Part shown: positions 15,466 through 63,748 of the stretch, one piece after another | Numbering within the stretch: position 1 is the stretch's first letter | How the letters are laid out: the number at the start of each line of letters is the position of its first letter | Assembly (NCBI GenBank): GCA_002633005.1 | Contig: NMRA01000359.1 | Span: 397,992 to 461,991, forward strand | From: Phoronis australis | Lineage: Eukaryota > Animalia > Phoronida | Direction: 5' to 3' | DNA: 64,000 nucleotides | Program-made: the position numbers and the translations under genes | The notes under the pieces: generated by a model | Databases searched by the model: none | What the model saw: the letters and a program-made list of their open reading frames with translations, nothing else | Told to the model about the DNA's origin: nothing

Positions 15466-15568
15466 CGTAACCAACGAAGATAAAAAACTCATTGGAGCGT
15501 TGAATTTATGTGTTTGTACCGAAAACATGGTGTTTGAACTTTCAAAAACATCTCTGTTTCTCATTCAG

Positions 15569-28329: not shown

Positions 28330-28554
28330 GTAAAGTGAACTAATTAGCCCCCAATTAGTCTTCATCTTCTACGTTTAGACAAATAGGTGAGCATTATTTA
28401 TTCATTTGGGGTTTCTACTTAAAACTGCGTTTCTATAGTATTTAATAGACAAAAGACGAGTGCATTAGTGTACTAATTATTTATATTTTTATTGGTATAA
28501 AGAACATAAATACGAAAACATGTAAGACAAAAAATGCAAACCATTCTCACTATT

Positions 28555-28557
<3 letters not shown>

Positions 28558-28602
<45 letters not shown>
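28558..28602. repeat. (CA)n microsatellite
   Basis: Seen directly. Confidence 0.95.
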
Positions 28603-28607
<5 letters not shown>

Positions 28608-30335
28608 CCGCCCCCCATCAACATACCCACCCACTTTTGGTAGGATGTTGTCAGGAACAAGTTATGGTTATCTAGTTTCTCCAGGTTGCCTGGTATTCAT
28701 CTAAATTACCATTATTTAATAAAATTCTTCTCAGAATAAAAATTTAGCTTTTTAATATGTTAAGAAAATGACAGAAACCGGGGATTATTTTTTCATACTT
28801 AGGTACGTACATAAGACTTTTTAATTGCAAAAGTATCCAATTTAAAAACATTATTTTCGCTACTTATGGGCATGTCAAAATCGTTGTTTGTTGTCAATAA
28901 CCATATTCATACATTTTCTTTTTTTTAATTAAAATTGAACGAACTAGACACTTTTCAGTGTGATAATAATTCTTGTTCATTTATGAATTTTAACTCCGTC
29001 AAATCGTTAAAGGTAAACATGGCGTTAATCCCAAACTAAAATAAACTTTATTCATTTGACGGACACTTTTTGAAGGTTAAACAGGTTTGCCATAGTAGCA
29101 TAACTCCAACCTATTATAATAAAACAGTTTGGTCTTTCAAACTGCTATTTTGTACCTCGAAAACAAACAACAAAACTAATGCATAAAATACTGTAAGTAT
29201 AGAAACGCCGTTTTTATATTTAAAGATGTGGGGCACGTAGTTAATTGGGTTCGACAAGGTTTGCTAAAAGCCGACACTGACTAATTTTTTAAACTTTTAA
29301 AACATTGAAATATGACTTTCTGTTTCAAATGCCAGATTATTTAATTCAAGAATGTTGATTTTAGGTTGGGTTTTTGTTATTTTGGCATTCAATAATATAG
29401 AGTTTCGGCTACAGGTTACCATTTTTCTAATTTGCTTTCATAAAATATTACCGAAATTGAGGAGGTTGTTTCCGTCAGTGTGACAAGACTGAACGCGAAA
29501 ACGTAGGTCAGAATTATGACGTAGTAAGCAAAGAATGCCGGTATCACACGTTCGCATTCGCTGTTAACGTATTGTTGAAACACTAATATCTCGCGACATC
29601 ATAGTTTACAGTCGATGACGTCACACTGGACAAAACACACAGTAGACATAAGATATGCCTTATATCAAACGGCAATTTTGAAATTTTTTAATTGAGAAGA
29701 AACTTCTTGTCTTAGATTGTTCACATCATTTAAACTGGAATACAGTAAGGTTCTCGTGATCTTGAAATTGGCGCGTTTTTAAGAAGGGAAATATTCGAAG
29801 CTGTTTGAGCTAAAATAGTTCAAAAACGAAGTCGGCAACGCCCTATTTTTGTTATTTCACTGAAAACACCATAGACAACACAATGATACATAAAAGAAAA
29901 ACGTAGCAGACGTAAGTTTTTGCATAGAATCGGAAACGTTAAAATTTGAGATACTCACAATCCACAAACGTTCACTTACGCCGACATAAAAAAGTAAATC
30001 CGGAAATATAGTCAAAGCCATCAAAACACAAAACTGACAACGTACAACAAACTGACCAGGCTTGAAATAGGATTTCAATCATTAATTTAATTTGAACTGG
30101 GTTTCAGTAACACATGAAAATTTCACATTTTTGCGAGACGTGTCTTTGTCAATGAAATATGTATACGAGAAAGAAATTATAGTGATATATCTATACACAC
30201 ACACACAAACACACACACACACACACACATATATATATCGTAACGCATATAGAGATTCATTGAAGTGTTGAATTTATGTATTCGTACCGAAACATGGTGT
30301 CTGAACTTTCAAAAACATCTCTGTCTCTCATTCAG

Positions 30336-30519
30336 GTATCGGCAATTCCACGATTGCTTCCCAAGAGGATGTCTTGGTTGCTATACAGAAGGAGTTGACG
30401 CAACGATACTTGGAACGATTTCGCAGAATTAATCCTCTGCCATGGTCGGGAGAACAATTGAGAAGTCTACCCGATGTTTACACAGACTTATTGCTCAATG
30501 AAAGAGACACGTACAAACG
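30336..30519 (+). CDS. NLR-like paralog 2, coding exon 2: pre-NACHT linker
   Basis: Acceptor ttcAG 30334-30335, donor CG|GTAAAT 30520. 184 nt, near-identical to 15569-15752. Confidence 0.88.
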
Positions 30520-31459
30520 GTAAATTTAGACACAAAAATCAAATTGTAGAACTAAGGTCCCATAATCTTCCTTATCGTGAATGAGTTTACTTCATTTACA
30601 AACAAAAACACTGAAACCATCAGCGCTTCAAAGTTTACAGGTGTATCCACATGTACACATAGACTCGAGTTGGCAATAGAAATCGAATTGAAAAATATAT
30701 ATCATGCGACCGATTTTATGAAAGTGAAATGTCTACTTAATTTGGTTGTGTTTTTAGCCAACTAAACGTGGCAGCAGACTTAAACTGATACTTTTGATAA
30801 TCAGACGAGGCTACGCTTATGCGGCAGTCTCAGAGATGCCTTCTAGTATTCACATTGTCCATATTCATTACATATTATCATACCGAATGCTCCGTATGTT
30901 GTGCAAAAACACAAATTACTCAGCTTAAGTTGAATCTCGAAATTTGTTTTCACTCTCCAAAATTCTCTTTTGCATCGTTCTTGTGCTCCAACTTCGTAAA
31001 CAGAGGCCTGGTCGTCTGTTATTTAAGTTTCTCGGTTATTTAGCCATAGCTCTGTTTGCCAACCATGACTTAGATTCTGATCTTTGACGTAGCAAGTCAT
31101 CCAAACAATGCTATATACGGACAAAATAAGTTTCACGTGATCCAAACATACCTTTCTGCAGGAAGAGATCCCCTCCTGCTTTCTGTAACTTTGGGCCGGA
31201 GCAAACAAGGTCGTGCATAGGTTCTCAAAATTTGCGACGAAAGAGGCATTGTTTCTATAAACAAGTTGTGGCAAAGAATGAAAGTCCGTGACTGAACAAA
31301 GCCTTGCACAAATCATTTCGTATCTTTATGTGGTTTGTCAAAAAAGTAAATGAGACATTGGTTGAAATCGATAAGTTCAGTGAGCGCAGGCCTCAAAATG
31401 AGTCGGGGTACAGACCAGAACCAACAATGCTTTCTTGACTTTATTCTTGTATTTTGCAG

Positions 31460-33428
31460 GGCACAAAGCAGCCATTCTATATACTTAGATGACATATTTG
31501 CCCCTCAGAAGGACTGTCCGTGCGTCAAGCGTGTTTACATACAGGGAAACTCAGGTTCGGGTAAAACTGTGCTCTGTAACAAACTGGCGTACGATTGGGC
31601 AACGCGCAAACCTGGTTCTATGAGTAAATTTTCAGCTGTGTTATTCTTGGAAATGATGGAAGGTATTGTCAAGAGCAATTTGATGGACACTATAATTGAG
31701 CACCTGTTGCCCTTTGATGTTAAGTACAAGCCGTTGGTGCCTAACTGTTTGAACGAGTACCAATCAAACATCTTACTGATCATTGATGGTTATGACGAAT
31801 TGTCTGCCTTGGACAAGCAGAACTTTGAATCATTTCTGGAAGGGAGGTATCTTCATCAAGTAAGTTGCTTGGTGACGTCAAGACCGACGAACTTGGAGGC
31901 TAGACACTTCGACCGCCGACTGACATGCAATGGATTCTCTTTAGAAAATGCCAGACTGTTTGTTGACAAGTACTTTGACGGAAAACCGAAGACGTATTTC
32001 AAGGATTTAATGGACCGTGTGGAGAATAGTTGCTACATGCGTCAGCTGGTAAGGAACCCTCTTAACTGTTTGTTGTTGTGCGTCCATTGGGAGGAGAATG
32101 AGCAGAATAACAGGGGAAATCTTCCACGATCGCTTTCACAGTTATTTTTCAGTATTATACACATCATGAAATTGCGTCACCAACACAAAACAGATCGAGG
32201 CAAACGGTATGCAACTGAATACGAAACCTTTGAGGACGACTATTTCTTGAAAGGAATTAAAAAGCTGGCTTTTAAAGGTGTCATAGAAGGTTGCAGGGAG
32301 GTCTTTGCCTCTACGACCCTTAAAGGAATACCGGAAGGTTGCACGAGGGTCTCCCTTTCCGAAGACGAGGCAACTGATATCAACTGTGAAGACGTGGTCA
32401 AGATGGGCATTCTTACCAGAGTCCAGTTAAAATTTAGCATGGAAGAAAGGTTTTGTTTCACTCAAAGACATATACAGGAAGTGTTAGCGGCGATGCACTT
32501 CCCACAGCTGTCAGGTGCCGACAGGCGGAAATACTTCCGGCAGTTTCTCGCAAAACCAGAGACCACAATTCTTATTATATTTATCATGGGTGTCTTCAAA
32601 ACAAACGATGTAGTCTTGAAAGAACTTTTTGATATTCTGGCTGAGAATAATCGCCACAACTACGACATTGTTAAGTTTGGATTGTCTGATTGTGCAAATG
32701 CAATCAATGTTAGTTTCAATAAAGTCACGAAACCCTTCACCGTGAGCTTTCATGCTCTCAACGAAGCCGAGAGCAAGGACAACGATCAGTTTGTCTCGCT
32801 CATTGCTACTTCGATGCCTCGAAACCTGTTTCTTGACCAGACATGTCTACGCAACCATTTCCTGTGTCATGACATATCGTATAGCTGCTTTATGATTCTG
32901 GAGTCGATGCCGTGTCCTGAACGTGTCATGATTATGGAAGTGCCTTTCTTCAAGGAAGAAAGTCTGAAGCTCGTGAGCAACATACTCGAAATTTTTCGGC
33001 GTATATCGGTCCATGATTCAAAGCCGCTTGAGCTCTTTATTTACTGCGACGGAAGAAATATTTGCGGGTATGTTTCGATTCCGCTTTTTATGTTCCGGCT
33101 CATGGAATGCATGGAGAACCAAACACACATCAAAGACTTTTTCGAACACCGCGTTAGGAGTTTGAATTTCCTCATGCCGGAATGCCATCGCCTACGTGAG
33201 ATGACATCTTTCGAGTTGGAGGAAGAAATGCAGTTGCCTCGTAAACCACCAGTCAAACTTCCTCCATTGGTGGTTTACACAGAGAGGAAGTTCGATAATC
33301 TTGACGACTATATGAAACTGAACATTGACCGAATGGGTTCCCCTGAGGTAGCTGCATTTTTCTTTCAGAAGATGAATGGCAACTATAACATTGCTTGGAG
33401 AATAGCATCCTTGGCCAACAATTTATAA
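31460..33428 (+). CDS. NLR-like paralog 2, coding exon 3: NACHT + HD1/WHD/HD2 + C-terminal region (spliced protein 814 aa)
   Basis: Acceptor ttgcAG 31458-31459. GNSGSGKT, LLIIDGYDEL, LVTSRP, FCFTQRHIQEVLAA. Exon sum 292+184+1969=2445 nt, in frame. Confidence 0.92.
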
Positions 33429-40245: not shown

Positions 40246-43119
40246 ACAAGAAAAAAGCAATGATACTTCTCTTGCACTCAATGTTTATACGTATGTTTGT
40301 AGTAGCCTTAGACCAGATATCTGAAAATTCCAGCTCAGAAATTTGAGCAGAAGCTGACACATGAATGCAACAAGGGGTAGACATCGTGCCAGTCTATTGT
40401 GAAGTTGCACCCTAGTTGAGTATTCAGCAGAGTTCTAGCTGTCCCAAAACTGCTCTTTGCGAAACACAAAATGATTCAGGAATGTGCCAAGAATTCTTTC
40501 AGTGCGATGACACTGGTGGCCACTTGATTTGGCTTTCCTCAATTCCTAACTGCTGCCTGCTCGTTTTTGAGCCTTGGCCCTTGGTAACTGCCTATTACTT
40601 GCACACCCATCCAAGAATTAATACTCTCCAATGTAGTCAGTAACAGTAAACAAGCTCGCTAAGCCAGATAACATCAGCTGACTGTCCTCTAAGGAAGGTT
40701 TTCATGCCAAGCAATATTTTTCTGGCATTTGATTGGCTGTTCGGATCATTTTGCACTGACACCTGGTGGCTAACATATTAGTTGAGGTTATATTTTTCCA
40801 AATTTTAAATTAAAATTCTTACTAAACGTGCAAGTGTTTTCTTGGAACCTTTTTTGAAATTGACTTTTGAACATCTGTAGATGGGTTTAATGCAAAGTTC
40901 CCGTTGTCCCCAGAAAGAAGCCACGCGGAGGTGAAAGATAGGAGAGCTGGGACTATGGCCAATGCAGTGTATAATGTGTTGTAGTAATACATTACAGTGA
41001 GCTGCAAGCATGTAACGGCTTGCATTTAATAGAGTCTTGAAAGGTGTTACAGGGGCTCCTCTGGCAAACATGTTGAATTTACATGGCTTACTGAAAAAAC
41101 ATTTTTAATTAAATTAATAACTGAATCAATAAACCAACTACCAAATGAAGACTAGAAATTAAGTATCTGTGGTTAGAGGGCGCCGTGAATACGAGATCGA
41201 AACAACGAAACGTCAGGTTACGGATGAAATAAGTGACTTTGGGTGAGGATTTGTCTTTTTTTAGAACAACAAGCTGCGTTCCTGAAAACAAAGTGTTATA
41301 CGCCTTACCTTCTCCAAAACTAAAGAAAAAGCTTTATTTGAAAAACTCCTTGTACATTTAATCTCAGTTTTTAATAACAAAAACAATGCACTTGATAAGC
41401 TTATATTTAACAAATATAACAGAGAATGCTGACGGCCAGGCCTGAGGAATTCCCTTATTTTTCACAACTCCCCTCCTCCAACTGGAATACACTGCCCTCA
41501 AATTTTAAACACAGTCGTTCACTCTCAATGATCAAAACAAGCTTTAAAATTCACTTCTTTCATGCGAATTTACCGTTCCCGTTTACCAAGTTTAAATTAT
41601 TCCTAGAGCTCACGAGGTATCTCTTAATAGAGCTGCGTTCATGGCCCAGTTGCATAAAGGTTATGTGCAGTATAGCAACAATGACGACGCGTTGTCAGGC
41701 GTAACGTTGCTATTGTTGAACAATACACCAGACGTCTATCAACAATAAAACTTATCCAGCGGATAATTTTGAAATTTTTATGCAACCCAGCCCTGGACTT
41801 TAACTTGTCTCTGACAAATTTGTACACAACTTCACAGACGTCTCGTCTCTTCGTTGTTTAATTTGTGGGCAAGATCAGACTAAAGTTAAATTTCTGCTGG
41901 ACTGTCGAGTTAATTTTCAACAACGACAGGGTCTCTTCCAGATCATTGATAGCAACTCTGATGTGTTCTCTACACTCAAAGTACTCCGTAGTTTACTAAA
42001 CAAAGCCAATGTCCTCATCAATGGTTCAAGTAAATTCTGTGTAGAAACTAATCTTATGCTGCTTCTATATGTCACATCATTTGTTTATAACATTCAGCAG
42101 TTGTATTGAAGGGTTTTTGTCATTGTCATTTTTCACTTTTTCATTTGTATAATGATAACAGTTTTTATTAGTGTGTTTTATTGTCTAAAGCCCAGATATA
42201 ATGTTCACTGCGATTTCCTTCTTAATAAATTGTTAAACGACAAAAAGTGACAGATGCCGTAAGGCGACTAGGTGCATTCGTCGTTTGTATGCAGACGCGT
42301 TCAGGATCAAAACTACGTTTTGTCTTCGCTTTCTGAGGTATCGCCTATGCTATGTACACCTCGTCGACTCGATGTTGTGGCGACTCAGTGAATAAAATGA
42401 GTGCAAATTGTAGGAAGAGCACATGGCAAATTCGATTTGAGTGGCAGCTTTGTAACTTTTGACTTTGGACAGGTAGCTAACAGATTTCCAAGCGTTTGAA
42501 AGCCATTCTGCATTTTTTTCTCGCTACATGGCCAGCGTATTTCGTATACTTTGAAGTTCCCTTAGAATGAAGATAAAGTATTTTGTTGGACAATAACCTT
42601 AAAAATTATACTCAATAGTTTTATATGTTGTGTGACCTTTTGGCGAACTGCTCCGAACCTGCGTAACAGGTGTGCAGGCGTAAGCATACACGGATTTTGC
42701 TAAGCCGTTTGGGGGTCACGTGATTTAGGATTGCCCTAATTTCATGAAACTATGTCAAAATGCAGACGATTCTAGTGCATTAAAGTGGGTCATCTAATAG
42801 GAGATGAAAAAATCAGAGGAATTAATCATGAGTGGTCGTGTAGCAAAACAATCTAGACCGATCGCTAGGGCAAATCAGACCATATGGACCTCGTGAGAGC
42901 AATATTGGCGTACATTGCTCTCCCTCGGTGCATATGACCCCTAAACAACTTTCTAATCGGTCTATGTTCATAATTATAATAAAATGTTACTGTTGGCCAC
43001 CGTGTTCTACCATATCATGGTCGGAGGCAACCGTCACTCTCAATATTAAGGTTAAGCCTATCTGACCTTAATTGTTGAGCTTAACCTAACGCTTATTCTT
43101 GTTCACATTCAGGAGGACC

Positions 43120-43408
43120 ATGAACGAAGAAGAAAAATGGAAGCTTCAACATAATCACCAAATTCTCATCACCGATGTATCTCAAGATGTTATCGAAGAA
43201 CTGTACTCCACGGGGATCATTAATCAAAGAGATTTAAAAGAAATTTTTACCAGAAACCTGACTGAAGAAAAGAATGAATTATTGCTGCAAATGTTGCCCA
43301 CTAAAGGTCCCAATGCATACACACAGTTTCGTGAAATTCTGGTTAATCACGGCGGATACGAGTACTTGGTTGAGCGGCTTGATCAAACTTCCCACGTTCA
43401 CCACGCAG
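43120..43408 (+). CDS. NLR-like paralog 3, coding exon 1: CARD domain
   Basis: Acceptor ttcAG 43111-43112, ACCATG (ATG 43120), donor G|GTAAAG 43409, phase 1. Translation MNEEEKWKLQHNHQILITDV...LLLQMLPTKGPNAYTQFREIL. Confidence 0.88.
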
Positions 43409-44399
43409 GTAAAGGAATATTACGTTGGTATATGCCACAAAGTTGTTGGTTTGATTCACGTGGCGGCCATCTTCTATCTAAACACTTATACTAGTACTAT
43501 AAAGTGTCGTAGTTCATTTAGAAATTTTCTTTAAGCAACGGTATAGTTTTATGTCGCGATCAGATGTCTAATTTCAGATGCGACGTTTTATCAAAAGGGA
43601 GATCAGACGTTTAAAGAGCCATCCGATCGGCGACATTTTTGGGTCGCACTGCGTGTGACGCCTCGCTACTACCCATACAGTTGTAATGGATGTATAATTT
43701 AACAGTCCATTATTAACACAAAGAAGACTTATTATTAGTTTATTACACTAAAATTTTGTCGATATAGTGATATTCCAAGCTCTGATAAGATATTCCGTGA
43801 ACGACGATCTTGTTGGCCATTTCTGGAACCAACTGTTCACGTACTATGAAAGTGTTTCGCACGACAGTCCTGTAGATCAGTCCTCATATACCAGTCATTA
43901 ATATCCCCAGAGTATTGTAACAGTGCAATTACTGGCCACAGTCTTTCGTGACGTAACACGAGACACTTTGCTGGTCGCAGTCCCTGTGAGCCTAACACGT
44001 AGTATCTCGCTTCCCACAATTCACAAAAACATAGACAATTAACAAAAGTTTATATTGTAGAAAATTCAAAAGTGCGCCGAAACAAAATCTTGTTTTTGTT
44101 TGACACCAGTTAACACTCAATTTGTGAACTCTACAAACTTTGGAAGTGTTCAGAGATTGGCGATGGGCCTATATTGGCGAAAAATCCGAATACAGGACCA
44201 TGAGCCTACTAACAATACACATTATACCGTTTCGCGAAAATATGTGGTCGCCCCTTCGTAATATAGATCGATTAGTGGCGCACATAAAGGTAGTTTCCAC
44301 AAGTGAAGTCAAGTCAATTTGTTTATAGTCACCTAAAATAAAATGAGAGAAAACAGTATACCGAGAAATAAATACAAAAGTCACGAAATAAATATGAAA

Positions 44400-44880
44400 T
44401 TAAAACAAAGATTTAAATGCTATACACAAAATTAACAATTAGCACCATACGAGAGAATATATTTGAATTAGAAAATCACAGGCACTGCAATTTAATTGCA
44501 GGGAGGCTCAGTCCATGGGCTGGCATATGGCACAAAAGTATTTAAATCTGAGCTCGATCTCGCCTCCTCTAATAAAGAGTTCCACAAATTAGAGTCATAG
44601 ACTCTCATAGATCGCGGAGCGTAACGAGTGGTTCTGCACTGAGGAATGTTAGTCCTGTTGGATGATCGTAAATTATATGGGGTCCTGCGAATTGTGAGAA
44701 TGTCCCGTTGAAATGGGGGTGACAAGATTAAAATTTTAAAAGCTTCTTTTAGAATGTGTACCAAGCTCTAGAGTAGGTAGATTAACTCTCAATAATTGTG
44801 TCTCATATGAGCTAGAAAAATCATCAAACACAAATCGTAGGGCCCTGCATTGAACTCGTTCAATCGTATATGTATTGACT
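44400..44880 (-). mobile_element. LINE 3' remnant (CR1/L2-like ORF2 tail)
   Basis: PYNLRS...TTRYAPRSMRVYDSNLWNSL resembles the ORF2 C-terminus; upstream sequence is decayed. Confidence 0.5.
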
Positions 44881-44912
44881 AAACCACGAAAATACCAGAC
44901 TAAAGTACACCA

Positions 44913-45071
44913 CAAGGGCGGATCAAGGATTTTGAGTTAGGGGGAGCCATGGCAGAGTATTAGCCAGGATTTTGCTCGTCAGACATTCGCACCCCCCATC
45001 TGACAAATGTAAACTAGGAGAATTTTAGAGGGGGCCATGGCCCCGTTGGCCCCCCTCTAAATCCGCCACTG
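44913..45071. mobile_element. MITE, same family (inverted), 5-bp TSD CACCA, in intron 1 of paralog 3
   Basis: caagggcggatc ... aaatccgccactg, flanked by CACCA on both sides. Confidence 0.75.
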
Positions 45072-45173
45072 CACCACCTCCTGGTCTTCCTTCAGTACTG
45101 ATGACGCGACAACACACGTTTGCGCCGAAGCTTGATTTCGAAATATTCGTAAGACCTCTCTTTCATTCAACAG

Positions 45174-45360
45174 GTCCGCCGGCCAGCCCTACTGGCGTTT
45201 CCCACGAGGACACTCTGACTGCCATACAGAAGGAACTGGCCCAACGATACGAGGAGCAGTTTCACAGGATCAACCCCCTTCCTTGGTCAGGAGAACTGCT
45301 GAGAAGAATGCCTGATGTTTATACAGAGTTGTTGCTCAATGAAAGAGATACATACAAAAG
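45174..45360 (+). CDS. NLR-like paralog 3, coding exon 2: pre-NACHT linker
   Basis: Acceptor aacAG 45172-45173, donor AG|GTAAGT 45361. Translation ...AIQKELAQRYEEQFHRINPLPWSGELLRRMPDVYTELLLNERDTYKR. Confidence 0.88.
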
Positions 45361-46741
45361 GTAAGTCTATAATTTAAAACTATACTTCCTTTTTGACCTA
45401 TAGCTCAAACGTAAACTCAAGAAATATGCTGATTTCAATTAAAACTGTGGCATTGCACTTAAAAATTCCCTTGTCATGATAGCTTGGAATTTTACTGAAG
45501 CAGTCAAACTTTGGAAGGACTGGCCGGCCCTCTGATTTGTTAGCTATATTTGACTATTAAATTCTATAGATGTTCATCGAGGTTAGGGAAATGCAGTTTT
45601 CTATTAATTGTCTTGGGAAAGGGTTTGAGCGAAATTTGGCAAGTATTTCATTATATTAGATTTGGCACTTTTTACATACTCAATCTTCAGATTTTACCTC
45701 CTTCAAAGCGTCTGTCTTTATAACTCTTCATATGTTACATTTTCATGGAGACGACCACTGACAGAAAAGCACGGGGTTTCTTGATGCCAGTATTCGTTCT
45801 ATATTATCACAGTAGACAAAAACTTAATTGATTATGGATGCCAAATGCACAATCGAGGCATCACTTTATCGTACGTGAAGTCCCTATGACTAGATTTTCA
45901 CTGATAAATATAGCGGTTCATGAAGACGATCACAAACTGTAAATAGGGAAAACGGTCGAATCTACAGTTGTTTCAATTTATCTTTTTTTTGTAAAAGGAA
46001 AAGCTTCGCGCTTGCAACGTGCCAACGACCATGGTCTTTGCTACAAGTGCCTCAGGTCCTTGTTGATATTGCGCTATCTTGACAGTTTCTCAAAGATTTC
46101 TAAAATATCAAACGTTCCCGTGCAGAACTACATGAAGGGAAACGCCCTCAGCGTGACTTTCTTACGGCTTATTTTGCACGTTCGTCATCTAGTGACGATT
46201 AAGTTAGACGAGTTGCACGCGTTGGTGACACAGTCGTCGATTTCGGAGACGACACGTCTCTGTACTTGCAGATCAACCAGTCGGTGTTCATATTGCAACA
46301 GATAGTTGAACCAAGAAGTGCAAGGTTGACGGAACCAATTACATCAGACACTTGTTTGTAAAAACGGTCAGATTTCATTAAATGTTTGCCGGGACATTTT
46401 TTTCCCCGCTGACCACAAGTAGCAAAATTTACGTGTGAATTGGTCCCCCAATGGTCAACTATGATTTGGCAATATAGCGTCAATTTACGTACCAACTCCC
46501 ATTGTATCAGGCATATATTACCATTTGGTCAAAACGCATAATCTTACTGGTTAAATGTTAACGGAGCGTGAACCTGACACTCTCGATCCGAGCAATGTGG
46601 ATAAGTTGTAACCGTCAAAACTGATTTACAAACGTGTCCAACGGAATCGCCACAACGTGAAGCTAAGGGCGTTCAATGAAGAATTTCAACACAATCTATC
46701 AATTGATATCTTTATCGCTAATAAGTCTTGTACTTTTACAG

Positions 46742-48671
46742 AAATCAAAACAGTCAACCTATTTCCGTGGATGACATTTTTGCCCCTCAAGAAGACTCTC
46801 CGTCCGCCAAGCGGGTCTACATCCAGGGAAACTCGGGTTCGGGTAAAACAGTGCTCTGTAACAAGCTGGCGTACGATTGGGCAAAACGCACGCTTGGTCC
46901 AATGGGCAAATTTTCTCTTGTTCTATTCTTGGAAATGAAGGAAGGAATCGTCAAAAGCAATTTGAAGGATACTATAGTCGAGCACCTGTTCCCCATTGAC
47001 TTTAAATACAGGCAGTCTGTTCTGAGCTGTTTAAACGACTACCAGACAAACATCTTGCTGATTATCGATGGCTATGACGAATTGTCTCCCCTTGACAAGC
47101 AGAGCTTTGAATCCTTTCTGGAAGGGAGGTATCTTCACCAAGTCAGTTGCTTGGTGACATCAAGACCGACGAATTTAGAGGCTAGACACTTCGACCGGCG
47201 ACTGACATGCAGTGGATTTCTTCCGGAAAATGCTAGAAAGTTTGTTGACAAATACTTTAACGGAAAACCGAAGACGTATTACAAGGATTTGATGGACCGC
47301 GTGGAGAATAGCTGCTACATGAGTCAGCTGGTAGAGAACCCTCTAAACTGTCTATTGTTGTGTGTCCACTGGGAAGAAAATGAGCAAAATAACAAGGGAA
47401 ATCTTCCTAGATCGCTTTCGCAGTTATTTTTTAGCATTATCGACATCATGAAGTGGCGCCACCTTTACAAAACAGATCAAAACAGGCGAGGTGCAAGTAA
47501 ACTCGAAGGAGTTGAAGACGATAATCTCTTGGATGAAGTGAAAGAATTAGCTTTCAATGGAGTAATTGAAGGTTGCAGGGAGGTCTCTCTCTCCAGGCAT
47601 CAGACGTCTTCCCTTAATTTTGACGTTCTGATTAAGATGGGAATTCTTACGAAGGTTGAATCTAAACTGAAGAGAGATGAACGTCTTTGTTTCACTCAAA
47701 GGCACATTCAGGAGGTGTTGGCTGCGATGCACTTCCCAACACTGTCAGGCCCCGACAGGATAAAATACTTCAAGCAGTTTCTCGCAAAGCCTAAGACAGT
47801 CATTCTTGTTATATTTATTATGGGTGTTTTTAAGACCAACGATGAAGTGTTGGAAGAGCTGTTTGAGATTCTAGCTGAAAACAATCGTCACAATTATGAA
47901 TCGATCATATTTGAATTGTTCAACGCTGCATCTGCTACGAGTACTAGCTTTAACAGGGTCACAAAACCTTTTACGGTGAGTTTCCATGCTCTCAATGAAG
48001 CCGAGAGCAAGAACAACGAACATTTTGTCTCCCTCATCGCTTCCTCGATGCCGCGGAATCTGTTTCTTGATCTGACATGTTTACGCAATCATTTCTTGTG
48101 TCACGACATGTCGCACAGCTGCTTTAAGACTCTGACGTCGATGCCGTGTCCTGAGCGTGTCATGGTTATGGAACTTTCCATCTTCCAGGGGGAGTGTCTG
48201 AAACTCGCAAACAAGGTATTGGATGTTATACGTCTTGTTTCGTCTGAAGATCCAAAACAGTTCGATTTTTTCGTTTACTGCGATGGCAGGAACGCACACG
48301 GATATGTTTCCATTGCGGTCTTTCTGTACCGGCTCATGGAATCCATCAAGGACCACCAGAATATCAGAGTCTTTTTCAAGGAGCGCATCAGAAGTATAAA
48401 CTTCCTCTTGCCGAACTGTAAGCGCTTGCGTGAAATGACCTCTTCAGAGTTAAAAGACGAGATGAAACTGCCTTCCAGCCCACCAGTAGAACTTCCTCCA
48501 CTGGTAGTATACACGGACAAGACATTCGATGAACTTGAAGACGAATTCAATACTGATAGTGAACATGCGTCTCCTCCGGAAGTGGCTGCTTTTTTCTTCA
48601 AGAAGTTAAACACTGAATATGACATAACTTGGAGAAGAGCATCGTTCCCCACACCTTTAATGCATACTTGA
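46742..48671 (+). CDS. NLR-like paralog 3, coding exon 3: NACHT + HD1/WHD/HD2 + C-terminal region (spliced protein 801 aa)
   Basis: Acceptor ttacAG 46740-46741. GNSGSGKT, LLIIDGYDEL, LVTSRP, LCFTQRHIQEVLAA, stop TGA 48669-48671. Exon sum 289+187+1930=2406 nt, in frame. Confidence 0.92.
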
Positions 48672-53500: not shown

Positions 53501-55175
53501 TTGAAATGGAGGTACGCACATCCGAAGTTCAAAGGATTTGCCGCACTCCTACTAATACATGTACATGTAGCTGCCGACGTGGAAGTTGAAGTGGCTCTCT
53601 CAAAGTGTATTTGACAGATAAGCCAATTTGAAATAGGATAACATACACGATAAAAATGATACCCGCCGACTCCCCTGCCATCAATGTCGTTTGAACATGC
53701 AAACAAGATAAAACTAAGCGAAAACTTCCTTAACTCGGTCGCACATTTACGTTGCAACTCGAACACATGAATGAAAAAATCGTATGAAAAAATGAGCGTC
53801 TTATCTTGGTTGGGTATTCAATGACTAGCTCTAATTTGGCATGACAGTAAAAATTTCGAAATACCTCGAATTGTGGACATTTTAATGACAAAAGTCAACG
53901 AGAACTAAAAAAAAGGAAAAAAAACCCGGCCACTCGGTTCAGGCCTACGAATTGTGCATCCGCGGAGAATTCCTGTGGACTTTCGTCGCGTTTACTCGGT
54001 TTCAATGGGGTGGACCTTTTTGCCCACTTCGCCGAATTGGGGAGCTCGTTTGAGCCCTCCAAGCCCCCCCCCCGGGGAGCGCTCATGAAATACTTCAACA
54101 TTTTTGCAGAATTCCACGAGTTTTGGGCGATTCAGGTTTGCTCTGTGCGTGGCACTGTTTGCCGTATAACACCCAGTCGCGTGCACAACACTAATTAATT
54201 CGGCTGTGAACCAGGCCGGGATTTGACTCTTGAAACTGCGAGAAAATAATGGTTCTTTTTTGAATAAATGTTTTGTAGCGTGGTATGAAAGACTGTGATT
54301 GACTGTGAACCTGGCAAGTGTCCATTTCAACAAAGCATCTTTTTATAATCACTGCAGACGAAGCTTGAACTGCGATATCCCCGGCGACGCCTGTAGCCAA
54401 ACCCCAGGCGGCACTAAATTTGTGTGTACAGCGCCGGGAAAAACAATTGGAAAACTTAAAAATACCAGCGCTAAATTCAAACACGGAGCACTGAAGTTTT
54501 TTTGTCTTTGTCTTATGCTAGGCTAAGTCCGGGTACACCAGAGCGAGCCAGTGCAAATATGCCGTCACACCTATTTCCGAGCGGAGATTGTCAACCACGG
54601 ATGGGCCCGAGTATTTGTGTTCACTGCAGACTTATGAATTGCAGCACCGTGTAGTGTAATGAAACATTGACACATGTAGTCAAGGATACCGGTATATTTC
54701 TTCGCTTTCTTTCAAATGCAACTTCATTGTTTTCTCATATATCTTCCTTAACTGCATTAAAGTAATATACTCGTCTGAGAGCTTCAAGAAACAATTATTT
54801 GACTTCTGAAGTCATTTTATGAATTATCTGTCTAGCATGCTACTCTACATAGATTTTCTTACAAAAAGATTTGCAGATTTGATTTTCGCAGCCTGGTGAC
54901 GATGCACACATCCTGAATGCAACAAACTTTTTAATGTTTGCTCAGTTTCCTTCATTGCCATCCTTTAAACAAGAAAAAAATAACATGCAAACAGTATGTT
55001 GAAGTGCAAACAAAATGAGCTTTTTACATACATTACATTTTTTCCTGAGAGGTAGGGGACCCCCTCTCTTGACCTCCCCTTCGGCGCGCCTCAGAATCGT
55101 GTTTCGTGCGACACAATCATTTCCAGGAATTGACCGCTACTTCTCATCTCCTAGATGAGTCCCTGGTTGGGGAGC

Positions 55176-55809
55176 TTAGTTCTCCATGAAACCCGCATTT
55201 TGCGATGCCATTTTATTAATTATGGGGGATGATGTGTAAAAGTACCTTTCGTGCATATCTACCACTGCATGGACTGTGCTTTCTGCACGAATGTAAAATT
55301 TTTCGTTAGCTGAGTAGGGCTTCAGTTTAACTACACCTTCTGCTATAGTAATTCTGACAACAAAACGAGTTTGGGGTTCACCTGGAGGTGAGCCTTCCTG
55401 CTCGGTGTGTTGCTCGCTGCTTCTCCCACCTTCTTTGATTTTATCACTGACGCGCTTTTCTTCTTTCTTTGCCACTTCATTATCCTGTGGATCGTAGACA
55501 GGAACAAGGTCCACTTGGTACATAGTAGTAGACACCCTCGGTGTGAAACTGTGTATACAGTTCGTTATAGATGTTCTAAATTGGTCCTTTGTCTTCCTGT
55601 CCATGGGCACACCTTGGACTTTGCCATCATCCGTCACACCAAAATAGAGTATCCCTCCAGAACTATTTAAGAATGCACATAAATACTTTTTAAGCATCGA
55701 CGACAGGTTTCGTTTTCCATCACCCTTCTTCAATTCACAATGCATACCTTCTTCTCTGATGTATTGCTCCCTCACATAACTCTCAGCATCGTCCGGTTTA
55801 AACCACAAC
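55176..55809 (-). CDS. TIR-Schlafen gene, last exon: Schlafen/AlbA_2 ribonuclease-like domain
   Basis: Minus-strand acceptor tattccAG|G at 55811-55810, phase 2. EGMHCELK (ExxxxExK) followed by KYLCAFLNSSGGILYFGVTDDGKVQGV, the AlbA_2 signature AFxN..GG.L..GV.D. C-terminal FYIR strand; stop TAA at 55178-55176. Confidence 0.88.
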
Positions 55810-57270
55810 CTGGAATACATAAATAAATTGCCTATATAATTCGAGTCATTAATTCATAACACAGGTCTTGTAATGCAGCAAATCGTGAGGCTGCTTCATA
55901 TAAACATAAATATTTGCGGCCATATACAAACCATACGCATATGAGCGTCTTCACCTTTCGCTCGAACACATGTCTGTCACAAGATAAGATGTCAGCATCG
56001 ACAAAGGAACGAATCAGCATGCACAAAGGTAATCCGAGAAATACTCTTCACCCGAGTCCGTGGATACGTTTCGTTGTGCACTTACATGCATTTGCAGCAT
56101 GCCTTACAGTACGACTGTTCTCCTCCACAACGAAATTGCAAGCAATACACCTTGCAAGTGAATTGAAGCATTTAACATTCAACAGCCGGAAACAGAAGAG
56201 CAAAAAGATGTACTAAATACACCCGCAGTTCTCAAAAAGTATCGTCTCATGTTATCTCTCTAATAGCGGGTGAACTGTAGAAAACAACAGCTCACGTGAT
56301 GTTATATGTGTGGACGAAAAGTCTTGTTGTCAAAAATGGCGGAGAGCATTGAGAGCAAACATTACAATTGCGTACATGTAGTTATCATAAACATTACATG
56401 TACATGTACTTCCAAAATTCCTTAAGCAGGGAGGTAGGCTGGCCAAGCAGGGGCGGTGAAAATAAATCAATTTTGTTACAGTAACCCGTAGAAGGTCTCC
56501 AAGCAACGCATCGACGTTTCGCTTTGCAAAAGGACTCTGCGTTGTAGGCCACGTTGTACCCCATGTCTTATGAAAACACCACGTATTGAGACGACCAAGC
56601 ACACATGTAAAGACTTAACGGAAATATCCAGCGCAGACAGGAACATACTGTATGTTGAAACTGAAACGGCCAGAGTGGCTTGTCTCCGTCAGACTATATG
56701 TAAACTGATGTTGCGAATGCTTGACATAATTATTAAGAATTATCCATCGGTGTCATTGGCCATGCTGACAAAATACCGTTACACCTGACTACATGTGTAC
56801 AAGCCGCAGTGGCTGGATCACCAAGCGGATCGGTATAGAGGCCACAGAATGGACATTTACCAGCGACGTCAGTGGCGAAAGGGTGTCCCAAAACTATTCT
56901 GGAGATCGATGATTTGTTTACTTATAGATACCTGTAATCATTAATTAAGACAAACCCCAAAAACGAGAATGTGAAACATAACCTAAATCGAGAATTTCCG
57001 AACCTGCTCCGAGGAGCACAACACAAAAAACTGAACAAAATTTTCACACAACATGCAATGGTAAACTTAAAAAGCACATGTGTGTCAGCCACTTTTTCAA
57101 AGTCAGAGTTATTACATGTTTCAGTGAGCAGTCCAACAAGATTTGTCATTTAATATCACTTTTGGTGTTTACAAAAAGAGAGCTTTTGGAAAATTAATTA
57201 CGGAGAGGTGCTGTCTCAGCGGCAAGCCCAAAACAAACAGAGCTCAACATGAGTTTTCGAATGCTAAATG

Positions 57271-59320
57271 GCTAAATCACTTAATAGGAGTCATGAAAGC
57301 CTGGTTTGTCAGACGTTTCCGCCCTATCTCTAAAGGTCCCGTTCACTGCCTGGATTCCTTGCGTCAGGTTGACCTGGTTTTAGAGCGTGAGGTCGTAACC
57401 ATTTATCTCTGTTCAAATTGGGGCATCTGGTTCTAATGTAAACAACTTCATTGACTTTTCTTGAGTACTAGTGTTTTTGTAGTAAGGACTATGGCGTTGC
57501 ACTTGTTGATGGTGTGACCAGTGTTGAGGGTGTGTTCCCCTACGCCTGTGGGTCTGCCCAGTTTAGAGTGTTCCCTCATCCTTGGCCCTGTGGTGCGTTT
57601 GGTTTTCCCTATGCATTGATGAGTGTTGTCCTCCTTGAATACCGTCTGGTATACAACGCAAGACTTCTTGTCAGTGGGGGTAGGTTCCTTTTGGTGAACC
57701 AACTGGCAGATTTGATCAACGTACCGAACTTTGTGTAGATCAAACCTGCCAGTTGCTGAGTTTCTGTCTTACCACTACGTACTTTCAGGGTAACAATCAG
57801 TTTTACCAACAATGCCTTGGAGCGGCTATAGGGTCTCCCGTCTCGCCAGTTGTTGCAGACATCTACATGGAGGACTTTGAAAGAAAAGACTTAGATACTG
57901 CTTCACATCCTCCCCGTACCTTGCTGAGATACGTAATCGATACATTTGTAGTCATACATGATTGCAGCCTCGACAGCTTCTTCGCACCCATCATCAGTAT
58001 CGACAGTCACATGAAATTCACCACGGAACCTGAGATCTACAATAACTGCCATTCCTCGACTTATGCATCCACGTCAACGAAAAGAGTTCCACCAAGAATG
58101 CGGCGTAGCGCAAGCCCGCTCTCACCGATCAATACCTGAACCTTCGCTCAACCCCCCCCCCCGTACAGCACAAACGTTCAGAGCTACGCACCCTCATCAA
58201 CAGAGCTTAGAGCTATGTTACCCTTGACCAATACTGCAGGGACGAAATTTCTCACATCTGCAGTGCTCTAACTGTCAATGATTATGAAACAACACCGACG
58301 TAACTGCAATCAGAACACTGACAGAGACGAGCTCAGACAACAATCCATAATGATTCCCTACGTCAACAATCTTTCTGAACAACGCAACTTCAAATCACAT
58401 GGGTTAAGACATTTTTCAAACCTATCAACACCATCCGGGAAAAGTTGGTTCACCCAAAGGACCCTATCCCTACTGAAAAGAAGTCTGTCATTGTATACCA
58501 GCTGTTATGCAAGGAGGACCCCACTCAACAATACATAGGAGGAACCAAACACACCCTAGGGACAAAGATGAGGAAATACTCCAAACTGGACAGAACACAC
58601 AGGACGGCGACATCCCGTTGCTCCCAATTTGTTCGATTGTATAGCCCAACAACTACTTGGGAAGTTTACCCCCGTAGCCAACAAACTCGATTCTGGCGTT
58701 GATGGTTGGAGGGCCTGCGCTCTTTTGTTTGATAATTGCTCTAATCTCCGATCAGATCGTATCTAGCCTGACTGGGGTGGGCTGATAAAAATGAAAGTTA
58801 AGTTAAGCCAGATATTATCGCACGTTCAGCACCTCCCACGTCTGGAAAAGCTACTGAACGACAGGACGCTGTAATGCAGGCGTATGGGAACACACCCTCA
58901 ACAGTGATTACACCATCGACAAGTGCAACGCCAGAATCCTTGAAAGAGAAGAACACTGGTTCTCAATAACTGTCGAGGAAGCTGTCTACATTAAAATCAA
59001 ATGCCCAACTTGAACAGGGATTAGGAGATACAGCTCCTAGCGGAGTACGACGTCATTCTAAAACAGGGCGTGCGTTCAGTAACGCTAGTACCTACGCTAG
59101 GTCCTAACAAAATCTAGCCATCGCCACGTGTTTTCATTCAAAGTACACGGAAATGTATCGTGTAATCTCGCGAAGTCGTGCCTTTTAACGAGGTCTTAGC
59201 GTTACTGAACGGCAGGCAGGTCAACCTAACGCAAGAAATCCAATCAGTGAACAGGGCCCTTAGTAAGATGACGGAAACGTTGGACTCACGAGGTTTTCAT
59301 TCTTTCTAGTGATTTAGACA
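57271..59320 (+). mobile_element. Decayed, 5'-truncated Penelope-like retroelement with an inverted copy of its 3' end, in intron 2 of the TIR-Schlafen gene
   Basis: RT motifs GAAIGSPVSPVVADIYME and RYVIDTF (57753-58139) and GIY-YIG VIVYQLLCKEDPTQQYIG (58445-). Region ~57271-57725 is the reverse complement of the GIY-YIG/3' end. Stops, frameshifts and nested insertions at ~58605-58880 and ~59064-59220. Confidence 0.85.
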
Positions 59321-59915
59321 TTTTACATCATATTATTCACCGATAGTTTTCTAATGTTTATAAAATCTTTTCCTCTATAATTGATCTGAGTATCAATTAA
59401 TTTTCAAATGATTTAGTGTCATATTTTGACAGTTTTTTAAAGTTGTGTCTGGAATTTAGAAACAGCTTTTTGAGAACTGTTGAACACTTCTAGTCTGTAA
59501 TTCAGTAATCAGGACAACTTAGCTTAAGATTTTCTTTGGCTAACTACATGTATGTCATACTGCTAACGTAGAAAGTGATGAATATCTCAGCTGTAACAAG
59601 CGAATCCTAAAATGCACGGAAGGCACTGCATGTACGCAAAACAATATTTACTAGCATGGGTCAGTAGATTTTAACGTTATTCATGACCATACGCTCGTTA
59701 ATAATATGTTTTTAAACCGGCATTAAACTCGGGCTTTTTTTGTTGAAAAGTTCTGATTTACATGTAGATCAGGGACCGTTATAAAATTGGTGTTGTCTCG
59801 TTCCTTACTCAGTTTAGCGGTGACCTGTCATCTCGGGAAGAACGGACAGCTCCAAAAATGTTCAGACCAAATTATGAGCTTTGTCTGAAGAAAACACGAT
59901 CTATTATTCACTTAC

Positions 59916-60370
59916 CAAGTTCTACGTTCCACAATATCTTTTAATGTAACCTTGGCGTCAGTTGTAAGGTTCCCGTTTTCAGTTTTTTGAAGCGCATACA
60001 AATTAATAGGCGACTTACTCCAGGTGCCAGGAGGTTTGTAAGATTCAACCTTCTCCATATAGACTGGAACCAAAAGACCACCCTTGTATTCGTTATTAAG
60101 ACATAGAGTTTCACTCTTCCAATGATTAGCCCAACGGGAAGATTTAAAATTTGTTGTAACCATAACAAACACATGGTTCGCATTTATTACGAATTTCTCG
60201 TGTTCTTCACAAATGTCATATCCTGGCGTATAATCATTTTTAGACTTCGTAGTAATGTTTCTTCCGCAATCCAACTCGATGGATTCCAATTGATTCCGAA
60301 ACCATTCCATTTTAGCTTCATCTTCGTCAGCGTACACTAAATACACGTCACAGTAGCGTTCTTTTTCATC
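59916..60370 (-). CDS. TIR-Schlafen gene, middle exon: TIR domain
   Basis: Minus-strand acceptor ttttattctAG|GAT at 60372-60371 (phase 0) and consensus donor TG|GTAAGT at 59915 (phase 2). Box-1-like YCDVYLVYADED, BB-loop-like DYTPG, betaC-alphaC VFVMVTTNFKSSRW, betaD LVPVYME. Confidence 0.82.
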
Positions 60371-62491
60371 CTAGAATAAAAAATCATTGAACAAAGAATT
60401 CAAAGCCTATACATGTAGAATACCTATCAATGTCAAGTTATAGGATAAGATCAAGCCACGACATTATCATACAATGTACTACTGCACTCAGATTAAGTCA
60501 CATCAACCTTCATTATGCGTTGAGTTCAAAGCTTCCACAATTGATACATAATTGAATAGCACTGACTGCCTAAATAATTGGTCAACCATAGACGTGACGT
60601 AGCAGCCAACAATAGCCTAAGTAAAAGCATAACAAACCCTGATTTTGAGTATAAACCGATGTTAACGAGATCTCAGTTTTTAAATCTTTGAAACAAAATA
60701 TTCCTCTGTAGACAATCGCCAATCTTCAAATGTCTGTTTCAAGTTCGTCTACTCCCAAAAAGCAAGGGCTGCATACGTTAATGGGCGACTCGAGGCAAAG
60801 ACTGCACAACTCGTGCTACTTAATCTAATCTGTGATAAAATGAGTACTGTGATTGAGCTGAATATTTTTTTACTTTTCCAGAGAAGAACCAATTATACAC
60901 ACAATGCAGTTTTGGGTGAAATGACTAAAACAATATTTAGTATCTTTTTGGCTTCTTCAGTTGACAACATGTGTGCTCTACACGGTGGGGTTATTTACAC
61001 GAAAGGAACGTAATTTGTGAAATAAGAAATAGTTTGGACGCTACACTGAAGACTGATGATTGTTGGAGCTGCATTCCTCCTGTTAAGCTGCCAAAACACA
61101 AGGAAGGTTTTCAGTTTATTTAGTTCTTCCCAAAGGTGTCTCATTCACTACAATAGACAGTTCCACGATTTCATGAACACTAGACACCGTGGCCATATTT
61201 TGACGCGAGCAGGGTAAAATTGGCCAGTTGCCGATTTGGGCAACTGAAAAAAAGACATCAGTATTTCTTCCCGTTGGAAGAAATAAAGACATGGACAGCC
61301 TACTAAGCTGCCAGGTTATACACAAAAGGTATTAGTCTTATAGCAACGTAACTTTGATGGTATTGTGAGGCATAATTTGCCGAAATGCTTCCGGCCAATG
61401 AAGGCTCTATGGCTGTGCAAACCGTAGAGACGGTGGAAGTGTCTAAAATACAAAAGAGAAAAGTGTCTTTGAATGATTGCCTCACCGTACAACAGTGTAA
61501 AATGATTAAATGTGCAGGGGTTGGGGTCGGGGTGTCCGGAACACTGGCCATGAAAAAGAGTTGGATTCTTTTACAAGGTAAAATTTTCATTTTTTAAAGT
61601 TTATCTCATGTTCATAGGTAAATCCTACGATACCTGGGCAACAGATAAGCATTCCACAAGAGTGATATCAGCAACAAGCTATAAAATACACATGGGTATA
61701 AACACACACACAAAAACTTCGCTACGCAAAAAAACATTACATTTTTAACACAGCCTTTCAACACCATCCCTTGTTTACCCTGCCATTGTTGAACTACATG
61801 TGCACAACCCATGTATAGTCGACGTTATGAAAAGGTCAACTCGGTAGCGGCTGTATTGCGAAATCCCTTTTCTATGAAGTCTAGGCCATGCAATATGTAT
61901 GACCTGCTTCAGCAGTGGTAATAAAGTCCACTTACCAATATATAGACGAAATTTTGGCAATGTCTAATATGCCATCTCGTTGAAAGTGAATAATGTTAGT
62001 GCTTCATTTTCAATGCGGGGATCATGGTATCGTCGAGAGATGCCAAAACGGGGTCATTATATTGCGTGGTTATTTACTAGTCCTCAATAAATGAAACTGA
62101 CTGTCCAGGTTAGGGAGATTCATCAATAAATACAACAATGAAACATTTCTAAAGCTATATCCGGCCAGTGCCCATTTTATTGTTATGTCTAATCAGTCAC
62201 CTTCAGTATTTTGAGAATAAAATTAAGGCTTTATCAAGCAGTGTTCGAACCGAGAATAATAAGGCAAACTTAGAGAAAGGTAGCTGCATTGTGAGAAACC
62301 AGACATAAAGATCGAAGAAATTCGTGATTTGTGTGTGTGTGTGTTTGTGTGTTTGTGTGTGTGTGTCCGTGCGTGTGTATGTTTGCGTGTGTATCTACGC
62401 GATACTATTTGAACTGTAACCCGCCGAAGTCTCGACATACAAGGTGTTTGTTAAGACCGTTAGAAGAGGAACCAAGTCAAAAGTGGCCTAC

Positions 62492-62650
62492 CTTTCTCTG
62501 ACTCTGGGTGATATTGAGACCGCTCTTCAACTGAGCCGTGGTGTCATCCAAGGACGCATGTGATTCTTGAGCATGAAGTTGTTGATCCATAGAGGTGTCC
62601 CCAAGCTCTTCTTGAACGCTCAGTTGATCTTCTGGGTATTTGGATGCCAT
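62492..62650 (-). CDS. TIR-Schlafen gene, putative first coding exon: acidic low-structure N-terminus (53 aa, absent from ORF track)
   Basis: gagATGG start context. MASKYPEDQLSVQEELGDTSMDQQLHAQESHASLDDTTAQLKSGLNITQSQRK, then donor AAG|GTAGGC at 62491, phase 0, matching the TIR exon acceptor. Promoter-like motifs lie 50-100 nt upstream. Confidence 0.65.
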
Positions 62651-62697
62651 CTCGTGAGATTGAAGTGTTAGAGAAGGAACGGGACAATGTCAACGAG

Positions 62698-62810
62698 CCA
62701 ATCCAGGCGGAAGTGACGTATGTCACGCACATGCGTTCTGTGAAGAAGGATTTCCTTTCTTTACTTCCTTCTCAAGTTATTCTTTGGCAGAGAATTTCTC
62801 GAATTCAAGA
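62698..62810 (-). promoter_or_regulatory. Putative proximal promoter of the TIR-Schlafen gene: CCAAT box, composite ETS-CRE motif, GAS-like site
   Basis: Read on the + strand: CCAAT 62698-62702, GCGGAAGTGACGT 62707-62719 and TTCTGTGAA (TTCN3GAA) 62736-62744, clustered just upstream of the minus-strand ATG at 62650. Short motifs, no TSS data. Confidence 0.45.
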
Positions 62811-63748
62811 ACTGCGACAGCGGCCTTGGACTAATGTTGACATATGCCTAATTTATTATAATTTGTGCTTAGAATGAGCTTACAGGAAAACACTGCTCTT
62901 TTGACGGCCAAATTTTGCGAAGAGCGCGTTTTTAAAGGCCTATGGTCCGAGTTATAGAAGAAAAAACCTCTTAACGCCGTTTAAGCCGGTTTTTTGATGT
63001 GACATGGAGTTCAAAAAGTTATTAACTTTCAACTTGTGCAAAAAGTTTGAAAAAAATCGTTGTAAATACTACAAACGAATGAAATGTTTACAAAGAATTT
63101 AGTATCCCGACCGCTAAATAGATTATAAACATTACAACAACGCATGCGCAGCCACAGATCTAGAGGTCAACAGAATTTATACAAATGGCGGGGAGAGGTA
63201 GATCTATGAAGTGTACGTCCGAAGGCGAAACGCAGTCGTCCTGCTCTACGAGATTCAGAAAAAGACGTGTTAGCCAGTACAAAAAGCGGCATTACCAACA
63301 AACCTTGTACCTGTAATCGACTCGTTCGATAGGTGAGAAACAATGAGGACAAGACTGAATGTTCGAACTCGTGAAGGTTTTACATTACAACAAATGAACA
63401 ATACCAGGCTTTGGATGGACAAGTATAAGTCAGTAAGGGTGCTGTTTGTGAAATGTTCAATGACTCGTATACACGTTTAGAGCATTCACTGATGGGTGAC
63501 TGATCTCAGTCAGCATACATCGGGCCCGAATCATTTTGAAGAGCCTCAATTCGATTGGCCTTGGTACAAAGCTGTATAATATACAGTCATCATACAGCTA
63601 GCTGGCTGGCTACAATTCAATCAGCTGTTCAGTTTTTGTTCTAATACTACTCTAATACTACTAGTACTAGTAGTAGTACTGATTCACGCTGACCCGGACT
63701 AGTTACACCATGTTAGTGTTTTAACATGTAAACGGTTAAAACTGATAA

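Follow-up and report, generated by a model that had tools for sequence, protein, structure and literature searches.

The minus strand of a 64,000-nucleotide (nt) stretch of Phoronis australis DNA (contig NMRA01000359.1; hereafter the window, to which all coordinates refer) carries a gene that fuses a TIR domain to a single Schlafen/AlbA_2 nuclease lobe. The TIR-Schlafen fusion is real and is transcribed at a low level, as RNA reads join the two domain-bearing exons directly. By analogy with known Schlafen proteins, we tentatively read it as a protein in which a scaffold TIR, recruited to TIR assemblies, would cluster Schlafen lobes and so activate cleavage of transfer RNA (tRNA) or other RNA and a shutdown of translation. 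We put this reading slightly below an even chance.

Gene structure and transcript evidence

The sequence-only reading had proposed that two minus-strand open reading frames are spliced, together with a 53-codon ATG exon, into one 1248-nt frame of 415 amino acids (aa). GT-AG introns and RNA sequencing (RNA-seq) reads bore this model out. The three exons together gave 1248 nt, encoding 415 aa plus a stop codon with zero internal stops, and each domain occupied its own exon, the TIR in exon 2 and the Schlafen lobe in exon 3. The parts of the gene, with the evidence for each, are as follows.

62492..62650, minus strand: exon 1, coding part (start codon and 53 aa, polar/acidic, no recognised domain), 159 nt, with a phase-0 GT donor (Pfam, RNA-seq)
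60371..62491, minus strand: intron 1, 2121 nt, GT..AG, phase 0 (sequence and RNA-seq reads)
59916..60370, minus strand: exon 2, TIR domain, aa 54-205, 455 nt (Pfam TIR_2, motif positions)
55810..59915, minus strand: intron 2, 4106 nt, GT..AG, phase 2, containing a decayed retroelement and multi-copy repeats (sequence, RNA-seq, Pfam)
55176..55809, minus strand: exon 3, coding part, single Schlafen/AlbA_2 lobe, aa 206-415, and stop codon, 634 nt (Pfam, alignment, model)
54900..55175, minus strand: likely 3' untranslated region, with ATTAAA at 54935 and an approximate end; same-strand depth runs into the 54801-55101 bin

The RNA-seq data were raw reads of three runs (X1, X2 and X3) from one study with the same species label, and about 18-19% of each run was used. 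Intron 2, which separates the TIR and Schlafen exons, was skipped in 2, 6, and 10 reads of X1, X2, and X3, respectively (18 in total, crossing the predicted 59916/55809 junction). These reads had 2, 5, and 7 distinct starts, respectively, and their short side reached up to 67 letters. Intron 1 was skipped in 1, 2, and 7 reads, respectively (10 in total, crossing the predicted 62492/60370 junction). The skipped stretches coincided exactly with the predicted introns, and mapping redone at 95% likeness gave the same result. Over a narrower stretch, 7 and 11 reads with loose ends at the end of exon 2 continued into sequence that matched the beginning of exon 3. All exon reads had the first mate on the plus strand, and this single orientation fits minus-strand RNA. 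Intron depth was low outside the multi-copy repeats. A fourth run, available as contigs only, showed zero depth on exon bins outside repeats.

The TIR-Schlafen join is therefore seen directly in RNA. A single 151-nt read is too short to cover the two junctions at once, and the complete three-exon transcript is inferred from the junctions as seen separately. The 18 joining reads rule out that the TIR and Schlafen exons are separate genes that fit in frame by chance. A longer receptor with an upstream exon was also considered and found to be unsupported. Thirteen codons upstream of the start codon the frame meets a stop, and at the start codon itself the RNA-seq reads showed neither a joint nor a loose end, at a low depth that could miss a rare upstream exon.

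Two irregularities were seen among the exon 2 reads. At 60351, 60362, and 60363, near the start of the exon, three of nine X3 reads carried three differences that change two residues, from either a divergent allele or a transcribed paralogue. At 59943, five X2 reads joined the last ~28 bases of the exon to a sequence absent from the window, which stems from a paralogue, from a different donor gene or from chimera formation in the library. Multi-copy repeats at 58413-59315, 61122-61422, 62676-62707, and 62928-63500 drew reads of both strands with many differences. The decayed retroelement of intron 2 covered 57448-58702. It gave a weak reverse-transcriptase match (RVT_1, E 0.01) at 57684-58136 with flanking open reading frames that resemble a GIY-YIG endonuclease, and it may be Penelope-like. 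Just upstream of the start codon (~62660-62770, minus strand), ETS-like, CCAAT-like, CRE-like, and NF-kB-like words were picked out by eye as candidate motifs.

The TIR domain

A profile search of the spliced protein was expected to return a TIR and an AlbA_2 domain, and both TIR_2 and SLFN_AlbA_2 exceeded their Pfam cut-offs. The TIR_2 match (PF13676) scored 35.6 bits against a cut-off of 28, while the PF01582 match scored 17.1 bits, under its cut-off of 21.3. The Atlas neighbours of exon 2 were TIR clusters (0.91-0.93) of bacterial proteins, and some of these clusters matched ThsB_TIR in part. A single-sequence model of the TIR was poor, with a predicted local distance difference test (pLDDT) score of 49, and the fold search on it was uninformative.

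By motif reading, a BB-loop DxxPG motif was located at residues 99-103, identified by eye against the BB-loop peptides in Table 1 of PMC6974880; this motif belongs to the BB loop of signalling TIRs. The WxxxE motif holds the glutamate of the TIR NADases of SARM1, bacteria, and plants, according to the passages of PMC10641520 on this motif. Here W133 is followed by W137, so Trp occupies the glutamate position, and a glutamate is present three residues beyond it. Because the BB-loop DxxPG is kept and the NADase glutamate is gone, the TIR domain is likely a non-enzymatic scaffold, as judged from its motifs. A TIR that itself cleaves nicotinamide adenine dinucleotide (NAD) in the manner of SARM1 would give a double-effector or self-signalling protein. 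The bacterial Atlas neighbours with their ThsB_TIR matches and the displaced glutamate would suit such an enzyme, but the Trp at the WxxxE position and the failure of any PADLOC model to match count against it, and we consider it highly improbable.

The protein is predicted to be soluble. Its maximum 19-residue hydropathy was 0.89, which gives no hydrophobic segment, and exon 1 had no Pfam match. TLR, IL-1R, and MyD88 proteins carry either a death domain or a transmembrane segment with an ectodomain of LRR or Ig type, whereas Pfam and hydropathy detected no transmembrane segment, LRR, Ig ectodomain or death domain in the P. australis protein.

The Schlafen lobe

The SLFN_AlbA_2 match (PF04326) in exon 3 scored 70.1 bits against a cut-off of 25.3. 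Pfam detected one AlbA_2 stretch only, and tblastn found no second Schlafen copy in the window. The Ex4ExK motif was formed by E225, E230, and K232, accompanied by the downstream D265, and all four residues were intact. The Ex4(E/D)xK motif is described as essential for tRNA cleavage in section 6 of PMC13056530. E225, E230, K232, and D265 were identical in 45 of 45 aligned relatives. At columns conserved at 90% or more, the P. australis protein kept 16 of 16, a count biased upward because the relatives were picked by likeness to the query, compared with 25 of 88 at poorly conserved columns.

The best PDB sequence matches of exon 3 were the catalytic C-lobes of SLFN13, 14, 12, 11, and 5. A model of the lobe, built on 46 sequences, reached a pLDDT of 83. 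In Foldseek, this model matched SLFN12, 13, 5, 14, and 11 together with the SAMD9 tRNase domain (E 7.5e-8 to 1e-5, template modelling score ~0.5). Alignment and model together confirmed exon 3 as a Schlafen/AlbA_2 nuclease domain with intact predicted catalytic residues.

Relatives of the Schlafen lobe

A HMMER search with the Schlafen exon returned 1028 clusters at E ≤0.001, and the best 150 of the 1028 were examined; these were 30-46% identical over partial matches. Among these 150 relatives, the Schlafen domain was partnered by cold-shock, UBA, RRM, NB-ARC, NACHT, WD40, U-box, and WWE domains. Ten top matches were looked up, and the six with names or species were SLFNL1-like or uncharacterised proteins of a brachiopod, two echinoderms, a hemichordate, an amphioxus, and a jellyfish. 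The SLFNL1-like names belonged to Lingula, a brittle star, Patiria, and Branchiostoma, and the unnamed relatives to Ptychodera and Sanderia. One search match, P0001 (2337 aa), showed ~20 separate SLFN_AlbA_2 matches in one chain, which may be a tandem array or a mis-predicted model. The introns, the neighbouring genes and the search matches indicate an invertebrate animal as the source of the gene.

In a quick tree of 135 rows, from which 16 short or repeat rows had been left out, the query was unplaced. In a careful tree of 45 rows, a hand-picked subset, it was the weak sister of the SLFNL1-like clade (79/87), outside the starred clade, and its branch was long (1.5 changes per column). An origin within the SLFNL1 clade had been hinted at by the top matches, and neither tree placed the query inside it. 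A CaaX-type C-terminal motif was present in 21 of the 150 relatives (including P0002, P0007, P0008, P0009, P0016, and P0017), which suggests from sequence that invertebrate SLFNL1-like proteins may be lipid-anchored. The P. australis protein ends shortly after the lobe and lacks both the C-terminal tail and the CaaX-type ending.

These relatives bear on a different function, in which the lobe is a real nuclease of RNA processing or turnover, PUCH-like or SLFNL1-like, working by itself or together with other single-lobe Schlafens in a heteromer, and the TIR merely localises it or holds the complex together. TIR domains are immune signalling modules, which speaks against such a role, as do the missing tail and CaaX-type ending and the position outside the starred SLFNL1-like clade. 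The invertebrate SLFNL1-like proteins as nearest named relatives, the weak sister position in the 45-row tree and the transcripts in all three raw-read runs are in its favour. So is the example of the single-lobe PUCH subunits, which process PIWI-interacting RNA (piRNA) precursors according to the part of PMC10567574 that deals with them. We regard RNA processing as unlikely.

Comparison with known systems

The closest precedent for the domain pair is prokaryotic. In PMC13056530, supplementary file MOESM4 has 17 rows of prokaryotic proteins labelled 'pSlfn.STIR', in which a Schlafen domain is followed by a TIR-clan domain (14 rows with TIR_2 and 3 with a CAP12/Pycsar TIR). That 2026 study covers 5,930 unique proteins, and the part of it that reports experiments describes four tested architectures, with TIR fusions not among them. 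The prokaryotic and P. australis proteins have in common a single Schlafen lobe with Ex4(E/D)xK, a TIR-clan domain, and a proposed sensor-effector logic. They differ in that the Schlafen domain comes first in prokaryotes and the TIR comes first here, and in the spliceosomal introns of the animal gene. The reversed domain order and the intron between the domains, with one domain per exon, make it likely that the fusion arose by exon shuffling, independently of the bacterial Schlafen-TIR fusions.

The sequence-only reading knew of no characterised animal protein with this architecture. That part has stood so far, as no animal TIR-Schlafen protein was found described in the open-access literature searched, and a mention in a domain-architecture table is possible. 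The TIAMMAt supplement contained no Schlafen or AlbA terms. The pairing itself is not new, since the 17 prokaryotic fusions hold the same two domains in reverse order, and the animal gene looks like an independent version of a pairing with bacterial precedent. A new TIR partner is also less surprising because TIR shuffling is common in invertebrates, as the amphioxus survey PMC2575513 indicates in the part concerned. There, 20 of 28 amphioxus TIR combinations are given as lineage-specific, and 'direct connector' hybrids (TIR-NACHT, TIR-SAM, and TIR-NB-ARC-WD40) are described. The P. australis gene resembles these hybrids in its apparently lineage-specific shuffling, in joining a TIR to a new partner, and in its predicted shortcut through a pathway; it differs from them in its partner, as no Schlafen or AlbA partner appears in the main text or in five additional files of PMC2575513.

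Among eukaryotic Schlafens, the invertebrate SLFNL1-like proteins gave the best named sequence matches and share with the P. australis protein the single AlbA_2 lobe and the same invariant catalytic columns, but they have no TIR, and many have the long tail and CaaX-type motif missing here. Mammalian SLFN11, 12, 13, and 14 share the active-site motif and the catalytic C-lobe fold. They differ in having two lobes per chain compared with one lobe here, a linker and helicase in SLFN11, and no TIR. SAMD9 and SAMD9L are likewise animal immune proteins with one AlbA_2 tRNase domain, and the model matched 9o0d and 7ksp. Their AlbA_2 domain lies within a STAND NTPase protein, whereas Pfam detected no NTPase or sensor repeats in any exon of the P. 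australis gene. SAMD9 and SAMD9L are large and multidomain and resemble bacterial Avs/NLR-like proteins, according to the section of PMC12680541 on their architecture.

Single lobes can also act in assemblies. Mammalian Schlafens pair two lobes, whereas PUCH of C. elegans (TOFU-1, TOFU-2 plus SLFL-3/4) assembles single lobes into an active heterotrimer that processes piRNA precursors, as set out in the corresponding part of PMC10567574. PUCH is like the P. australis protein in its single-lobe Schlafen subunits, which need assembly to cut RNA, and unlike it in being a heterotrimer for piRNA, for which that part of the paper mentions no TIR. The bacterial single-lobe protein RorSlfn5 forms a hexamer, cuts tRNA in the presence of a trigger phage protein and carries a fused domain as the proposed sensor (PMC13056530, section on this protein). 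The ribonuclease (RNase) activity of SLFN12 is raised by partner binding, as stated in the portion of PMC8285493 concerned.

Proposed mechanism and weight of the evidence

In the proposed mechanism, the TIR domain would join TIR assemblies that immune receptors or adaptors form. This docking would cluster single Schlafen lobes and likely switch on the nuclease, and the switched-on lobe would cut tRNA or other RNA, so that translation would be shut down in the infected cell. That TIR assembly gates the nuclease is a plausible idea and agrees with the missing NADase glutamate. The PUCH trimer, the RorSlfn5 hexamer with its fused domain and the partner boost of SLFN12 support gating by analogy. 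What the P. australis gene itself shows, namely two domains with a join seen in RNA, one lobe with its motif intact, the absence of a hydrophobic segment, and the CARD-NACHT neighbours, is consistent with a gated nuclease, as is the prokaryotic fusion of the same two domains. The RNase activity and its target RNA, a switch worked by clustering, a partner for the TIR, and a part in immunity are what we infer. A bolder version holds that an animal independently built a one-protein TIR-gated tRNA nuclease, which TIR receptor assemblies (Toll-like or other) would recruit so as to trigger Schlafen cleavage within minutes and without a transcription step; this version is rather doubtful. If true, it would give animal TIR signalling a direct output in translation shutdown or cell death, mirroring a putative bacterial Schlafen-TIR defence architecture.

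Several points weigh against a TIR-gated nuclease. The reading is drawn by analogy. Even for RorSlfn5, the corresponding part of PMC13056530 leaves it unknown whether oligomerisation drives activation and what drives the oligomerisation itself. The TIR is divergent, as it had no sequence match to any solved TIR in the PDB and only chance ankyrin matches, and its motif positions were assigned by reading the sequence. The closest named relatives of the lobe are SLFNL1-like proteins, whose function is unclear. None of the best 150 of the 1028 Schlafen relatives had a TIR by Pfam (with the top five families only for four rows), and the TIR exon matched none of these 150. Proximity to the NLR-like genes described below is weak evidence of shared function in an animal genome.

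The lobe itself also shows changes. At columns conserved at 75-90%, only 6 of 17 were matched, the C-terminal RRDGS motif was mostly lost (RAEST here), and a charged insertion of ~30 aa was present (44 residues compared with ~11 in most relatives). The loss of RRDGS and the insertion may alter RNA binding, to judge from the alignment. Divergence around the active site would also fit a reversed flow of information, in which the Schlafen lobe is the sensor or bait for RNA or for a pathogen anti-Schlafen protein and the TIR is the output, with NF-kB-type signalling. Receptors commonly place a signalling domain at the N terminus and a sensor at the C terminus, and the TIR resembles a signalling TIR in keeping the BB loop and losing the NADase glutamate. 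However, all four catalytic residues are kept, which a pure bait would not need, and the prokaryotic Schlafen domain is read as an effector, as shown for RorSlfn5 in the relevant section of PMC13056530. Reversed flow is quite unlikely in our view.

Exon depth was ~1-17, which is low expression. Word-index searches with the Schlafen exon (among longer proteins) and with the TIR exon (among longer and similar-length proteins) found no orthologue and no second TIR-Schlafen protein. No orthologue was found in metagenome contigs or prokaryote genomes, the TIR was unmatched in plasmids and phages, and no close prokaryotic relative of the Schlafen lobe was found; these searches were word-based or prokaryote-centred and are weak for a divergent animal gene. 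As no orthologue or second protein with the architecture was found, the gene may be of recent origin and confined to its lineage. In the extreme case, exon shuffling would have produced it recently, and its product, made from a low-level transcript, would have little or no selected function or act only as a dominant-negative TIR decoy. The lack of an orthologue, the long branch, and the low expression suit this, and so does the rampant TIR shuffling of some invertebrates (20 of 28 in amphioxus, by the same part of PMC2575513). On the other hand, the 415-codon frame, both junctions, and all 16 highly conserved columns are intact despite heavy divergence elsewhere. We give such a product only a slim chance, while a TIR-gated nuclease remains our tentative reading.

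The known animal TIR outputs are kinase recruitment (TLR/MyD88) and NAD+ destruction (SARM1). If our reading is true, direct coupling of a TIR to an RNase would add a third, and the bacterial plan of a Schlafen effector plus an interchangeable control domain would have been rebuilt in an animal via exon shuffling. The weight of this is limited by the apparent restriction to a single lineage and by the many unstudied invertebrate TIR shuffles. As a small two-domain protein that is predicted to be soluble, the product offers a simple test of whether clustering activates single-lobe Schlafen nucleases.

Genomic neighbourhood

Three tandem CARD-NACHT (NLR-like) genes were detected by Pfam in the same window.

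11488-19380, plus strand: CARD-NACHT gene 1, middle exon near 15574
27960-33428, plus strand: CARD-NACHT gene 2, middle exon near 30275
43090-48671, plus strand: CARD-NACHT gene 3, middle exon near 45029

In each, a middle exon stood between a CARD exon and a long NACHT exon, and the NACHT exons were 70-86% identical. Pfam recognised neither LRRs nor other sensor repeats in the long NACHT exons, whose C-terminal ~400 aa had no convincing match. The last of these genes ends 6.5 kb from the TIR-Schlafen stop codon, tail to tail with it. The surroundings are an innate-immunity neighbourhood. In the first CARD-NACHT gene, a pyrimidine-rich stretch contained a run of 31 N at 15342-15372.

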